This document shows, in pieces, positions 21,622-43,588 of a stretch of DNA of 64,000 bases. The translations under genes were made by a program, and so were the position numbers. Every line of letters begins with the position of its first letter. Within the stretch, counting starts at the first letter, position 1. The DNA is from Candidatus Nomurabacteria bacterium RIFCSPLOWO2_12_FULL_40_42 (GTDB lineage Bacteria; Patescibacteriota; Minisyncoccia; Phycocordibacterales; UBA9973), in the NCBI GenBank assembly GCA_001786195.1, contig MFVS01000008.1, positions 21,057 to 85,056 on the forward strand. The letters are read 5' to 3'. Under the pieces are notes generated by a model. The model had not been told where the DNA came from. It was given only the letters and a program-made list of their open reading frames with translations, and did not search any database.

Positions 21622-21692
21622 TGCGGGATGGGAGAATCGAACTCCCAACATCTGTTTGGAAAACAGAAATTTTACCATTAAACTAATCCCGC
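21622..21692 (-). tRNA. tRNA-Gly(UCC)
   Basis: Reverse complement GCGGGATTAGTTTAATGGTAAAATTTCTGTTTTCCAAACAGATGTTGGGAGTTCGATTCTCCCATCCCGCA folds as a cloverleaf. Anticodon loop TTTCCAA gives anticodon UCC. T-loop TTCGATT. No encoded CCA. Confidence 0.8.
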
Positions 21693-21702
21693 CTCGCATC
21701 AT

Positions 21703-21773
21703 TCGGGCTGCTGGGAGTCGAACCCAGCCTAAATGCTCCCAAAGCACTTGTACAACCGATATACTACAGCCCG
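21703..21773 (-). tRNA. tRNA-Pro(UGG)
   Basis: Reverse complement CGGGCTGTAGTATATCGGTTGTACAAGTGCTTTGGGAGCATTTAGGCTGGGTTCGACTCCCAGCAGCCCGA. Anticodon loop TTTGGGA gives UGG with G37. 7-bp acceptor stem and canonical T-arm. No encoded CCA. Confidence 0.8.
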
Positions 21774-21844
21774 CTTTACTTTAGACCAATCTAATATATC
21801 ATGGTTCTATTTTATTCACCATGACCCTGAGCCTGTCGAACGGG

Positions 21845-22249
21845 TCATAAAATTATATCTTTTACTACTTTTATTTTTGCGCTTCTGTCCTTTAAACTCA
21901 AAAACACCACTAGTAGATCTACTTGCCATTCTTCATCCAGATGTTTCGACAAAATATAAGTTTGAATCGCTCGAGCTAGCCTTTTTAGTTTCCATGGATG
22001 CATATTGTCCTCGGGATGATATTGATCTAAGGTTTCACGATTAACATTCTCCAATGTCTCCCGAGAAACACTTTTTACTTCAATAAAATATATCTTGTTA
22101 TCTTTTTCAGCGACAATATCTATTTCACCCCATTTTTTTGTGTAATTTCTTTCTCTTATTAAAAAGCCGTGTTTCACAAGAAACTTTACTGCTACATTTT
22201 CGCCTATCTCTCCTATTTTTTGTTTTTCTGAAGTGAAAACTTTTGGCAT
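21845..22249 (-). CDS. yraN: YraN/UPF0102-family endonuclease
   Basis: GEIGENVAVKFLVKHGFLIRERNYTKKWGEIDIVAEKDNKIYFIEVKS is the typical YraN PD-(D/E)xK core. Confidence 0.75.
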   Translation of the reverse strand: MPKVFTSEKQKIGEIGENVAVKFLVKHGFLIRERNYTKKWGEIDIVAEKDNKIYFIEVKSVSRETLENVNRETLDQYHPEDNMHPWKLKRLARAIQTYILSKHLDEEWQVDLLVVFLSLKDRSAKIKVVKDIIL

Positions 22250-22477
22250 GGCATTGTGAGTTTCACGAATAACATTCTAAATATGTTTCACATGAAACGT
22301 TTTTATTAAATTTTGTGTCTTTTATATAAATATCCTTATTTATCAACATATTTTGAATAAAATTGTTTTAAAAGACAATCTTCCACTATGTCCTTTATGA
22401 ACATTACTAACATAGTTATCCACAGTTTTTAACAAAAGCTTTATGTAATAAAGGTTTCACTAAAGGACATTATTTTG

Positions 22478-22549
22478 TGCGGCCAAGGAGAATCGAACTC
22501 CTATCTCAACCTTGGCAAGGTCGTGTTATAGCCATTAAACCATGGCCGC
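22478..22549 (-). tRNA. tRNA-Gly(GCC)
   Basis: Reverse complement GCGGCCATGGTTTAATGGCTATAACACGACCTTGCCAAGGTTGAGATAGGAGTTCGATTCTCCTTGGCCGCA. Anticodon loop TTGCCAA gives GCC. No encoded CCA. Confidence 0.8.
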
Positions 22550-22680
22550 AAATTAGTATACGATTCAAAAAAATCAAAATTATTTTTTACATTTTCATTA
22601 TAGTATTTTATTGGAAGTTATGCAATATTTACTTCGGAATTTAATTGTTTTCCGAAGTTTATTGTGTTACAATTAGTGTA

Positions 22681-23208
22681 ATGAAAAAATGTACTAAATG
22701 TAAGAAAGAAAAACCAGCTAATGAATTTAACTTCAAAATAAAGTCTTTAGGATTGCGGCAAGGTCAATGTAAAGAATGCACTAGGTTATTTGTAAAAAAT
22801 CATTATAATAAGAACAAGAGTTATTATTTGAAAAAAGCAAGGAAAAGAAATACCAAACTAGAGTTAGAATTGCTTGAGTATCTTAAAGATTATTTTTTAA
22901 AACATCCTTGCATAGATTGTGGAGAGTCTGATATAACAGTTTTGGAATTTGATCATATGGGGAAAGTCCCAAAATTTAAGGCGGTTTCTTATCTGATGAA
23001 ACATCGCTATAAATTAGAAAAAATCATAGACGAAATTAATAAGTGTGAAGTTAGATGTGCTAATTGTCATAGGAGGAAAACGGCTAAACAATTTAAGTGG
23101 TTAAAAAGTAATAATGCGCTCGTAGCTCAACGGATAGAGCACTTGTCTTCGGAACAAGGGGTTGTGGGTTCGATTCCCTCCGAGCGCACAAAAATAAGGA
23201 TAATATGA
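22681..23208 (+). CDS. HNH endonuclease-like protein; ORF reads through tRNA-Arg
   Basis: N-terminal CxxC...CxxC zinc ribbon, then LEFDHMGKVPKF...VRCANCHRRKT (HNH motif). The frame has no stop until 23208 and runs over the tRNA-Arg gene at 23116-23188, so the true C-terminus is unclear. Confidence 0.55.
   Translation: MKKCTKCKKEKPANEFNFKIKSLGLRQGQCKECTRLFVKNHYNKNKSYYLKKARKRNTKLELELLEYLKDYFLKHPCIDCGESDITVLEFDHMGKVPKFKAVSYLMKHRYKLEKIIDEINKCEVRCANCHRRKTAKQFKWLKSNNALVAQRIEHLSSEQGVVGSIPSERTKIRII
23116..23188 (+). tRNA. tRNA-Arg(UCG)
   Basis: GCGCTCGTAGCTCAACGGATAGAGCACTTGTCTTCGGAACAAGGGGTTGTGGGTTCGATTCCCTCCGAGCGCA. Anticodon loop CTTCGGA gives UCG. One T·T mismatch in the T-stem. No encoded CCA. 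Confidence 0.75.
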
Positions 23209-41304: not shown

Positions 41305-41700
41305 TTGGGTAAAATCGTGAGTAGCGAAAAAATTGTCGACGGAGCCACTGGGGTGAAGGTCTATCTCAGGCGGTTGTTTGCGGACGAGACGATAACTTAT
41401 GGCGATGTGAAAGTTGTCATTTTCGAACTCGTTCAAAATGGCAATTTCCAGAAAATGTTTGGAGAGCTCGGCGAAAAGCGCCGATGTTGGAAAAACAAGG
41501 AGGAGGCGCTGGCTTTCGCCGAGCAAAATACGGAAAAGCTCGGTCCCAACAGCAACTTCTTCGAGCTTGAAGGCGGCTTCGTTGCCAACGTGAACCTCGA
41601 CGGGGACGGTCAGCCCTATGTGAACTTCGTGAGCCCGCTTTCGAACGACTCCGCTTGGTACGCCGGGTTTCAGCCTCGAGTGTTCTACCCGCAACAGTAA
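41305..41700 (+). CDS. DGR target (variable) protein, small, VR at C-terminus
   Basis: 131 aa ORF; start is either TTG 41305 or GTG 41317. Markedly GC-rich relative to its surroundings. Its last 40 codons are the variable repeat. Followed by a hairpin plus T-tract at 41727-41790. Confidence 0.6.
   Translation: MGKIVSSEKIVDGATGVKVYLRRLFADETITYGDVKVVIFELVQNGNFQKMFGELGEKRRCWKNKEEALAFAEQNTEKLGPNSNFFELEGGFVANVNLDGDGQPYVNFVSPLSNDSAWYAGFQPRVFYPQQ
41577..41697 (+). repeat. DGR variable repeat (VR)
   Basis: 119-bp repeat pairing with 42068-42186. 10 substitutions, 9 of them where the template repeat has A (template AAC codons become TTC/AGC/TCC/TAC here). Confidence 0.8.
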
Positions 41701-42067: not shown

Positions 42068-42188
42068 CTTCGTTGCCAACGTGAACCTCGACGGGGACGG
42101 TCAGCCCTATGTGAACAACGTGAACCCGCTTTCGAACGACAACACTTGGAACGCCGAGTTTCAGCGTCGAGTGTTCTACCCGAAACTA
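42068..42188 (+). repeat. DGR template repeat (TR)
   Basis: Non-coding copy of the VR with adenines at the variable positions (5 AAC codons in the VR reading frame). Preceded by a TTGACC...TATACT promoter-like sequence at about 41795-41830. Confidence 0.8.
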
Positions 42189-42201
42189 TTAAGTTTCTCC
42201 T

Positions 42202-42595
42202 TCATTTATGTGGAGGAGTTTTCTTTTCGAGACCTTTCTTCCAACCACCCAGCATTCTGCCTATTTCCTGCAAGTGTTCGGATAGAGCAGAATACTTTTC
42301 ATTCGGGATGCATTTATTTCCCCAAGCTATCTGCAGAAAGAATTTTATGCCGTCGAGTTTGGAAATCGCGATGATGAGACGAGGTATTTTAGTTTCCGGC
42401 GGGAGATATATTGAAACAAAAATATTTTCCAAAAGGCCGAGGAAATAATCTTCTATCTTTCCACCTAGGGTGTAGCGGTGCGCCTTTGGAAAATCATTGT
42501 ATATTTTAAACCAAAGAGAATAGGCTGTTTTTGTCTTTAAAAGCGCTGAAGGCGCTGCGGGGGGGGGTCCCGGAAATATGAAACAATTTATTCAT
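42202..42595 (-). pseudogene. avd: Avd (accessory variability determinant; four-helix-bundle family), antisense to the TR/RT, apparently frameshifted
   Basis: Minus-strand frame encodes ...YSLWFKIYNDFPKAHRYTLGGKIEDYFLGLLENIFVSIYLPPETKIPRLIIAISKLDGIKFFLQIAWGNKCIPNEKYSALSEHLQEIGRMLGGWKKGLEKK, matching the TIGR02436/Avd consensus. There is no in-frame ATG/GTG/TTG upstream. ATG 42593-42595 is in the -1 frame and terminates at 42506, implying a frameshift near the A5/G9 homopolymers. Confidence 0.5.
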
Positions 42596-43588
42596 ACTTA
42601 CGATAGTACCATAACAATAGAAAAACTGCTCAAGGCATGGCAGGAATTCGTGCGCGACAAGAAAAACAAAAAAGATGTGATTTTATTCCAGGCCAAGCTG
42701 ATGGATAACATATTCGATCTTTTTAATGATCTTAAAAACAAAACTTACAAGCACGGCGGTTATATCGCTTTTAATATATCAGATCCTAAACCTAGGCAAA
42801 TACACAAGGCAACAGTTCGAGATAGGTTGCTGCATCATTTGATATATCGAGAACTTTACGAACATTTTAATTCAAAATTTATCCACGACTCATATTCCTG
42901 CCGATTAAACAAAGGAACCCACAAAGCGATCAACAGATTCCGCGATTTTTTCCGAAAAGTTTCCAAAAATCACGCAAAGACGTGCTTTGTTCTCAAGTGC
43001 GATATCAAGAAATTCTTTGCCAACATTGATCATCAAATTTTAAAGCAAATTTTAGAAAAACACATCGAAGACAAAAATATTATCTGGCTTCTTTCACAAG
43101 TTATAAATAGTTTTTATACTCAACTAAATACTAAAAACTCTGCGATAGCAGAAAGTTTAGTAAAAGGTTTGCCATTAGGGAATCTAACTTCCCAACTTCT
43201 GGTAAATGTTTACATGAATGAATTTGACCAGTTTATGAAAAGAGAATTGAAAGTAAGGTATTATATACGATACGCAGACGATTTTGTAATATTGAGTGAT
43301 AATAAAAATTATCTTGAAGACTTACTTCTAAAGGTCTCTAGCTTCTTAGAAAAAGAATTAAAATTACAATTACACCCAGACAAAGTTTTTATGAAAACTT
43401 TCGCTTCCGGTGTTGATTTTCTAGGCTGGGTACATTTTTCAAAGTATAGAGTTTTGAGGACGAGTACAAAAAGAAAGATGTTGAGGAATCTTGAAAAAAA
43501 TTTTAAAGAAGAGTCACGACAGTCATATTTAGGAATGTTGAAACACGGGAATGCTTATAAGCTCAAAAGTGAGATTGAAAACTTATAA
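42578..43588 (+). CDS. DGR reverse transcriptase
   Basis: 336 aa. Motif 2 VLKCDIKKFFANIDHQIL. Motif 4 GLPLGNLTSQLLVNVYM, the DGR-diagnostic [ILV]GxxxSQ in place of QGxxSP. Motif 5 RYADDFVIL. Confidence 0.9.
   Translation: MKQFIHTYDSTITIEKLLKAWQEFVRDKKNKKDVILFQAKLMDNIFDLFNDLKNKTYKHGGYIAFNISDPKPRQIHKATVRDRLLHHLIYRELYEHFNSKFIHDSYSCRLNKGTHKAINRFRDFFRKVSKNHAKTCFVLKCDIKKFFANIDHQILKQILEKHIEDKNIIWLLSQVINSFYTQLNTKNSAIAESLVKGLPLGNLTSQLLVNVYMNEFDQFMKRELKVRYYIRYADDFVILSDNKNYLEDLLLKVSSFLEKELKLQLHPDKVFMKTFASGVDFLGWVHFSKYRVLRTSTKRKMLRNLEKNFKEESRQSYLGMLKHGNAYKLKSEIENL

Follow-up and report, generated by a model that had tools for sequence, protein, structure and literature searches.

A length-variable C-tract between the start codon and the body of avd: a candidate slippage switch for diversity-generating retroelements in Patescibacteria

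A complete diversity-generating retroelement (DGR) is found in a 64,000-nucleotide stretch of DNA from Candidatus Nomurabacteria bacterium RIFCSPLOWO2_12_FULL_40_42 (contig MFVS01000008.1, positions 21,057 to 85,056; this whole stretch is referred to as the window). According to the sequence and the list of open reading frames (ORFs), the element is composed of a target gene carrying a variable repeat (VR), a template repeat (TR), an avd gene on the reverse strand and then a reverse transcriptase (RT) gene. The conserved part of avd, here called the body, has no canonical start codon in its reading frame, which raises the question of how, and in which cells, the Avd protein is made. Control of DGR mutagenesis is largely unknown, and a mutator that is always on would erode a working target protein.

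The answer proposed here, to which we assign a probability of about 0.55, is that a run of C residues in avd acts as a slipped-strand contingency switch that gates DGR mutagenesis, and that the window holds an OFF allele in which the VR is frozen. A hypermutable tract, usually C9-C10, followed by a small conserved hairpin, would separate an upstream ATG from the Avd body. Slipped-strand mispairing in replication would alter the tract by 1-2 bases, a change that would move the body into or out of frame with the ATG, such that full-length Avd would be produced in only part of the population. Because DGR RTs need Avd, the tract would turn adenine mutagenesis of the target gene ON and OFF in a heritable and reversible manner: ON cells would diversify the VR, and slipping to OFF would lock a variant in. 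With C9, the body in the window lies at +1 relative to the ATG at 42595, which would be OFF; C8 or C11 would be ON. Out-of-frame alleles would presumably yield no functional Avd, and the hairpin may have some role in the switch.

The avd body and its missing start codon

The body frame on the minus strand reads ...PPPAAPSALLKTKTAYSLWFKIYNDFPK...IAWGNK...EIGRMLGGWKKGLEKKTPPHK and matches the Pfam profile bAvd (PF22296) with 52.5 bits against a curated cutoff of 40 (E = 8e-14, profile positions 11-106 of 107). With the NCBIfam equivalog profile NF033474 (DivGenRetAVD) the score is 63.9 bits, under the cutoff of 80 (E = 1.4e-17). An AlphaFold2 (AF2) model of the body has a predicted local distance difference test (pLDDT) score of 90.9 and four helices (residues 4-24, 28-53, 57-83 and 89-114), and Foldseek matches it to the Avd chains of 4dwl and 8ub7 with template modeling (TM) scores of 0.78-0.90; a sequence search of the PDB with the Avd profile gave no match. 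The Avd-like reading that an initial annotation of this DNA had placed on the minus strand between TR and RT, with a profile search as its check, is therefore upheld by the profile match and by the model. The body is thus predicted to be a four-helix-bundle Avd of the bAvd type, for which formation of a pentamer and binding to the RT would be expected.

The body frame extends from a TGA at 42594-42592 to a TAA at 42204-42202 on the minus strand. Its first ATG, GTG or TTG is the TTG at 42432-42430, which opens the 76-amino-acid (aa) ORF (42202..42432) given by gene callers; as helix 1 begins right after the three prolines (PPP) encoded by the tract, this product would lose helix 1 and half of helix 2. 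The lack of an in-frame start between the TGA and this TTG, which the initial annotation had reported, is thus confirmed, as are its ATG in antisense overlap with the RT gene and the stop of that frame. This ATG (42595-42593) overlaps RT codons 5-6 (the RT ORF starts at 42578) and opens a leader frame (MNKLFHISGTPP...) that ends at a TAA at 42508-42506. The sequence ATG AAT AAA is the antisense of the RT residues F-I-H and is kept in close relatives.

The leader and body frames meet, offset by one base, at the C9 homopolymer (G9 on the plus strand, 42559-42567), which sits 9 codons past the ATG and 2 codons ahead of helix 1. Deletion of one C gives a 130-aa protein, MNKLFHISGTPPAAPSALLK..., that agrees with the N-termini of the intact homologues P0001, P0002, P0004 and P0006, and several homologues that are 84-90% identical begin like the window Avd with one C deleted. 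The suspected homopolymer frameshift is accordingly located at C9, where C8 restores an ORF of about 130 aa; a second run described earlier as A5 is a T5 at 42528-42532 on the plus strand. The G9 is the sole G/C run of at least 7 nucleotides in the 64-kb window (39.9% GC), and CCC, with 15% of the proline codons, is a minority codon in this DNA, two features of the sequence by which the run is not a chance occurrence.

Tract, hairpin and frame in relatives and populations

With an Avd alignment as the query, one genome of each species was scanned, and 79 loci were found in Nomurabacteria, Paceibacterota, Uhrbacteria, Falkowbacteria and others. A search with the junction pattern of the window, allowing a variable G gap, gave no match among metagenome contigs, which do not include the window population; relatives in metagenomes were found instead with the 22-mer of the left flank. 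Genome loci, metagenome loci and the window together make up 84 avd/RT junctions, of which 65 are unique (43 in a close group and 22 in a far group). Several third-party-annotation (TPA) metagenome-assembled genomes (MAGs) with Paceibacteria-type cassettes are labelled Saccharibacteria, Gammaproteobacteria or Nanoarchaeia (L007, L010, L045, L055, L067 and others), labels that are probably errors of binning or labelling.

A run of C7-C11 occupies the PPP position in 70 of the 84 junctions, with a mode of 9 (in the close group, C9 in 29 and C10 in 11). Most of the 14 junctions that have no run carry a clean in-frame ATG 7 codons before the "PS" motif, which indicates that the tract sits exactly between start and body. 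Dinucleotide repeats replace the C-run in three of these 14: (CA)15 in L046, (CA)13 in L052 and (GA)8 in L043. The two CA repeats are one unit to each side of the in-frame (CA)14, and in L043 the upstream ATG is entirely absent. Taken together with the minority status of CCC and the uniqueness of the long G/C run, the recurrence in 70 of 84 junctions is, judged from the sequence, a sign that the tract is selected at the nucleotide level.

Two nucleotides from the run lies a conserved hairpin, AGCGC-5 nt-GCGCT in the window. In relatives the stem comprises 5-7 base pairs, and AGCGC/GCGCT, AGTGC/GCACT, GAGCAC/GTGCTC and GAGTACC/GGTACTC are all found; 77% of the stem cells are paired, compared with 18-46% in slid controls, and for one pair, 21 sequences have GC and 15 have AU. 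Covariation scores 0.194, higher than in all 500 shuffles (0.128 +/- 0.015). Relatives without the tract are also without the hairpin. Counts of G-U versus A-C did not identify which strand folds.

The flank between the RT ATG and the run measures 6, 9, 10, 12 or more nucleotides and the run 7-11, and since both lengths vary, all three phases occur. An open in-frame ATG upstream of the run is present in 20 of the 65 unique junctions and absent from 45. Of the close-group junctions, 7 have the body in the frame of the conserved ATG AAT AAA, 29 have it at +1 and 7 at +2; a second ATG is present in nine of the +1 loci by way of a CATG shared with the RT start, where the window has CATA. Every far-group locus has an ATG 6-22 nucleotides ahead of the run; 2 of these junctions have the body in frame with it, 15 have the body at +1 and 5 at +2. 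The shift needed to join start and body is consequently +1 in 44 unique junctions, -1/+2 in 12 and none in 9. Some loci (L028, L012, L030 and L063) have no conceivable in-frame start, e.g., with a stop directly before DPPSA.

A downstream GTG, ATG or TTG start at positions +1 to +3 is ruled out for the group of the window, which reads GCG CTT TTA there; it is possible in far-group relatives, where it fits poorly with a conserved arginine (CGA, CGT or AGA) right after the run. Neither the leader frame nor the +1 frame contains a stop in the flank. This openness was discounted as evidence, since the stretch is antisense to the RT leader and rich in pyrimidines, and since a T is forced at the start of the third frame. 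In public annotations many avd calls are 75-93 aa long and start at an internal TTG or ATG (protein clusters P0001 and P0008); these short calls, and the records that start at isoleucine-position codons, are a systematic annotation artefact of the tract.

Populations were defined by contigs that encode an identical RT protein, and assemblies from different samples were compared; tract lengths are consensus assembly calls throughout. The tract length differs in 7 of the 10 populations, in which the sequences elsewhere show 0-1 mismatch over 2-3 kb. The alleles on the plus strand, with counts in brackets, are G10 (6) and G9 (3) in population A; G9 (5) and G8 (2) in B; G9 (7) and G8 (1) in C, which has the same flank type as the window; G10 only in D, where four contigs end in the run; G8 (5), G9 (3), G10 (1) and G11 (1) in E; G9 (7) in F; G9 (9) in G; G8 (3) and G10 (2-3) in H; G9 (5-7) and G10 (1) in I; and G9 (6-7) and G7 (1, L147) in the window population. 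In A, B, C, E and I one allele brings the body into frame with the conserved start, and for in-frame alleles gene callers report an Avd of 128-130 aa (L119, L122), otherwise one of 75-87 aa. As in simple sequence repeat (SSR) contingency loci, the repeat separates the start codon from the body within the 5' coding region, and at the level of assemblies its number differs among near-identical contigs and toggles the frame. The length differences presumably are true variants within populations that arise reversibly at a high rate.

Three further observations concern the tract in these contigs. L131, L132, L134 and L135 end in or beside it, and L084 and L110 are identical over 2 kb and diverge just after it; evidently, assemblers meet a branch point there. 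In L114, L180, L186 and L190, from four populations, the base that follows the G run is G instead of T, which lengthens the run while the total length stays the same. L127 has a G8 allele of in-frame length, yet a T4>T5 change in the TTTT/AAAA stretch after the hairpin, about 20 nucleotides from the tract, breaks the frame again.

Within populations the TR is identical and VR alleles differ only at TR adenines. There are three VR alleles in population C, five in six assemblies in E, two each in B, H and I and at least two in A; D, F, G and the window population have one each, that of the window being identical in all 7 assemblies, i.e., no ongoing diversification is seen there. The VR is polymorphic in all five populations in which an in-frame allele was seen, compared with one, H, of the five that showed no such allele, the other four being D, F, G and the window population (one-sided Fisher test, p = 0.024). 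Each of the two VR alleles of population B is found with G8 as well as with G9, which suggests recurrent switching. The possibility, raised at the outset, that the VR varies in spite of a broken avd applies not to the window itself, where a single allele is found, but to sister populations with the same majority state, in which an in-frame allele is also present.

The proposed slippage switch and its alternatives

Several observations weigh against the slippage switch. Junctions with the body at +1 of the ATG outnumber the other out-of-frame junctions by 44 to 12, and +1 is the majority allele in 7 of the 10 populations; such an excess is not predicted by a simple ON/OFF switch but is predicted by +1 recoding. 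Rarest of all is the in-frame state, with 2 of the 22 far-group junctions. Neither of the ON alleles, C8 and C11, was found in the assemblies of the window population, and the exact repaired C8 and C11 proteins are absent from a collection of 15 billion proteins. The covarying hairpin is given no role by the model. All tract lengths were called from consensus assemblies rather than reads: the recurrent T>G change after the run may reflect dislocation mutagenesis or an Illumina post-homopolymer artefact, and JGI sample 3300025323 has short alleles in two populations together with the additional homopolymer change of L127. The link between tract and VR comes from ten populations, and sampling or strain diversity could confound it.

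It is about an even question whether the locus forms a two-layer evolvability device, in which a heritable stochastic avd switch, consisting of C-run and hairpin, turns the DGR on in a minority of cells and then off, to freeze VR variants. The +1 preference would then reflect either second-order selection for a highly mutable OFF state or leaky +1 recoding that sets a low basal dose of Avd; the switching and recoding mechanisms may coexist.

Programmed recoding is rather unlikely but deserves the most attention among the alternatives. Either a +1 ribosomal frameshift on CCC_C at a poly-proline stall or the loss of one C by RNA polymerase would join leader and body; the hairpin would be the stimulator, and the +1 genomic configuration would be a functional wild type with a low Avd dosage. 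In the far group, 15 of 22 junctions place the body at +1 of the closest upstream ATG with an open frame; in the close group, 29 of 43 place it at +1 of the conserved ATG. In seven populations +1 is the majority state, by whichever tract length it is reached. In addition, the covarying hairpin begins 2 nucleotides past the run, dN/dS (the ratio of nonsynonymous to synonymous substitution rates) is 0.04 in the +1 genes, and populations B and C diversify the VR though they are mostly in the +1 state. A further point in favour of a ribosomal shift is the tendency of tRNA-Pro to slip by +1 on CCC-C.

On the other side, the direction of the shift is not conserved, as it would have to be at a prfB-like site: next to the 44 junctions at +1, 12 would need the opposite shift and 9 none. 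The zero-frame codon after the run varies (CGC, CTC, CAC, CCG), there is no close stop (in the window it lies 17 codons on), and CGC is not rare in this genome, i.e., the conserved slow or stop codon in the A-site is not seen. The (CA)n and (GA)n repeats stand in for the run in three relatives, and ribosomes cannot slip there. Populations D, F and G and that of the window, for which +1 is the only state found, have a single VR allele each. Transcriptional slippage, for its part, is documented mainly for A/T runs. Recoding or an ON allele would yield the junction peptide ISGTPPAAPSALLK or ISGTPPPAAPSALLK, and initiation at the in-frame ATA would yield (M)FPGPPPAAPSALLK.

Initiation at this ATA (42579-42577) is the next possibility, an improbable one: the gene would encode an intact 124-aa protein for which C9 is the in-frame length. 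An ATN codon is in frame in 29 of 43 close-group junctions, the codon being ATG in nine of them, where a CATG is shared with the RT start, the frame is open from the RT ATG to the tract in 42 of 43, and the NCBI protein records of some relatives begin at isoleucine-position codons (P0003 at L017, P0129 at L011). However, ATA is a very poor initiator in the bacteria studied, an A after the CAT is equally frequent where it is out of frame, and the far group has the same +1 bias without such a codon. Several loci lack any near-cognate start, the open frame is explicable by the pyrimidine-rich antisense of the Shine-Dalgarno (SD)-like leader of the RT gene, and the populations that have only ATA show no VR variation. 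An ATA start is possible for the subgroup of the window, at the same low probability, but cannot explain the clade.

Still less probable is that the G run and the hairpin act in the RNA of the RT sense, in control of RT translation or as an element of the DGR RNA, and that the frame trouble of avd is collateral. The run lies 9-15 nucleotides upstream of the RT ATG in close relatives, and the hairpin is palindromic, with its folding strand left undecided by the G-U and A-C counts. Against this, tract-free relatives function with just 6-10 nucleotides between the starts of avd and RT, the run is replaced in some loci by dinucleotide repeats, and collateral damage to an essential avd should be repaired by selection, yet the in-frame state is the rarest.

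We see very little reason to regard avd as a frameshifted pseudogene and the DGR of this genome as dead. Such a reading would agree with the absence of an in-frame start, with the single VR allele across 7 assemblies and with the lack of a repaired allele in the protein collection. Yet the body is intact and 84-92% identical to relatives, the RT, TR and VR are intact with 9 A-to-N differences between TR and VR, and the same state is normal in the clade, recurring in dozens of species and occurring alongside active diversification in populations B and C. Start-less avd genes have a median dN of 0.072 and dS of 1.77 with dN/dS of 0.041 (126 pairs), and purifying selection is no weaker than in loci with starts (0.064); a ratio near 0.04 indicates strong purifying selection on the body, such that start-less avd genes are not pseudogenes, contrary to one of the readings first offered.

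An assembly or sequencing error in a tract of true length C8, also considered initially, is the least credible explanation: homopolymers are error-prone and one assembly of the population (L147) reads G7, but the G9 is identical in six independent assemblies (ENA, JGI, NCBI) from different pipelines and years and in a near-identical 2011 MAG, which makes a simple assembly error unlikely, and the identical out-of-frame configuration is found in more than 20 species-level relatives.

The cassette and its known counterparts

The coordinates of the cassette are given in Table 1. In the 119-nucleotide alignment, TR and VR differ at nine TR adenines, as expected of a DGR, and at one other site (G in the TR, C in the VR); the VR lies at the 3' end of the target ORF. 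The RT has the RVT_1 domain together with the (I/L)GxxxSQ and YxDD motifs of DGR-type RTs.

Table 1. Features of the DGR locus, with positions in the window
Feature	Position	Strand	Basis or remark
DGR target gene, 131 aa, VR at 3' end	41305..41700	+	ORF list, VR/TR alignment
Variable repeat (VR)	41577..41695	+	119-nt match to TR
Template repeat (TR)	42068..42186	+	VR/TR alignment
Terminator-like hairpin CTCCTTCATTTATGTGGAGGAG and T-run TTTTCTTTTC	42197..42218	+	directly after TR, overlapping last avd codons
avd body (AAPSALLK...TPPHK and stop), complete four-helix, no in-frame canonical start	42202..42558	-	Pfam, AF2/Foldseek, dN/dS
Leader frame from conserved ATG, out of frame with body	42506..42595	-	
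Conserved hairpin AGCGC-5 nt-GCGCT	42542..42556		palindromic, can form on either strand
C9 homopolymer, PPP in body frame; proposed slippage tract	42559..42567	-	G9 on plus strand
Variable 10-nt flank, tract to RT ATG; RT proximal 5' leader and avd leader codons	42568..42577		
In-frame ATA overlapping RT ATG (TATG)	42577..42579	-	nine relatives have CATG, ATG on both strands
DGR reverse transcriptase, 336 aa, LGNLTSQ and YADD motifs	42578..43588	+	translation; Pfam RVT_1 E = 1.8e-26

The terminator-like hairpin, a doubtful part of the DGR system, could terminate a short TR transcript or influence convergent avd transcription. The avd ATG and the antisense of the RT ATG lie in opposite, pairing arms of a palindrome at 42576-42596 (TATGAA...TTCATA), and fold prediction places the start codon of either transcript within an AU-rich hairpin of 6 base pairs. 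A scan for sigma-70 promoters gave one match, fewer than in shuffled sequences, and no avd promoter could be named. An Rfam scan of the window found nothing at the DGR locus and four tRNA genes elsewhere, clustered at 21622-23188 on both strands.

In the classification of Wu et al. 2018 (PMC5758913), the layout TR-(avd)-RT is called architecture B3, to which 90% of their DGRs from the candidate phyla radiation (CPR) belong, and the reverse-strand avd between TR and RT in the window conforms to its definition. The description of the cassette as unusual therefore does not stand: the RT gene is divergent from avd in nearly all of the 79 genome loci in which an RT was found, and the distance from the RT Met codon to the "PS" motif of avd is 21-66 nucleotides in all examined junctions except L080 (95 nucleotides).

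If the proposal is correct, as a switch or as leaky recoding, the tract would be the first genetic element described as a regulator of DGRs in CPR bacteria and an example of one mutator mechanism that gates another; if recoding is the mechanism, C-run and hairpin would form a new conserved frameshift site. A slippage tract in avd offers a simple, testable answer to how DGR mutagenesis is controlled in a large clade of Patescibacteria in which DGRs are unusually common and of which none is culturable. The tract accounts for the truncated ORFs of 75-93 aa and the odd starts with which many avd genes of CPR MAGs are annotated, and DGR surveys may wrongly score such cassettes as lacking an intact Avd. 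The tract state would also serve as a read-level marker that predicts which natural populations actively diversify.

Compared with CPR-type B3 cassettes (PMC5758913), order and orientation are identical, and the taxon fits as well, Parcubacteria of Rifle groundwater. In that survey we found no mention of an avd homopolymer, of a start-less avd or of divergent start codons that overlap or lie a few bases apart. The Avd of Bordetella phage BPP-1 (4dwl) is likewise a four-helix bundle (TM 0.80-0.90, root-mean-square deviation 1.4-1.7 A), from which the window Avd differs in being only 17-19% identical in sequence, in being encoded antisense to the TR-RT transcript and in having no in-frame start.

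With prfB +1 frameshifting and with A-run slippage in IS elements and dnaX (PMC5009743), avd has several features in common: the start codon and a conserved body lie in different frames, their junction carries a slippery homopolymer, an RNA structure is close by, and a +1 shift is what is mostly needed. In contrast to these systems, the direction of the avd shift varies, the shift site has no conserved slow or stop codon, the run consists of C rather than A/T, and the DNA tract itself varies in length.

No paper was found that links the control of avd or DGRs to a repeat tract, slippage, frameshifting or phase variation (Paul et al. 2017 was not covered by the search). Homopolymer phase variation, DGRs and the B3 architecture are each known; for repeat-tract control of avd we found no prior description, and in this respect it appears to be new.

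The closest counterparts are contingency loci with poly-G/C phase variation within ORFs, such as Neisseria hmbR/hpuAB (PMC3786947) and the poly-G genes of Campylobacter (PMC6097035), as well as the homopolymeric tracts of Bordetella (PMC1891110) and the 7C tract of M. tuberculosis glpK (bioRxiv 10.1101/717272). In common with these, avd has a G/C homopolymer of 7-11 nucleotides towards the 5' end of the ORF, after the start codon and ahead of the functional body, with length differences of 1-2 bases between otherwise identical sequences, three frames among strains and other repeat types in relatives. Switching of avd is proposed from assembly consensus sequences; the avd tract strongly prefers one out-of-frame state and is accompanied by a covarying hairpin, and its hosts are free-living or episymbiotic CPR bacteria. 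Unlike the surface and host-interaction proteins controlled at such loci, Avd serves as accessory factor in a second hypermutation system, a targeted one.

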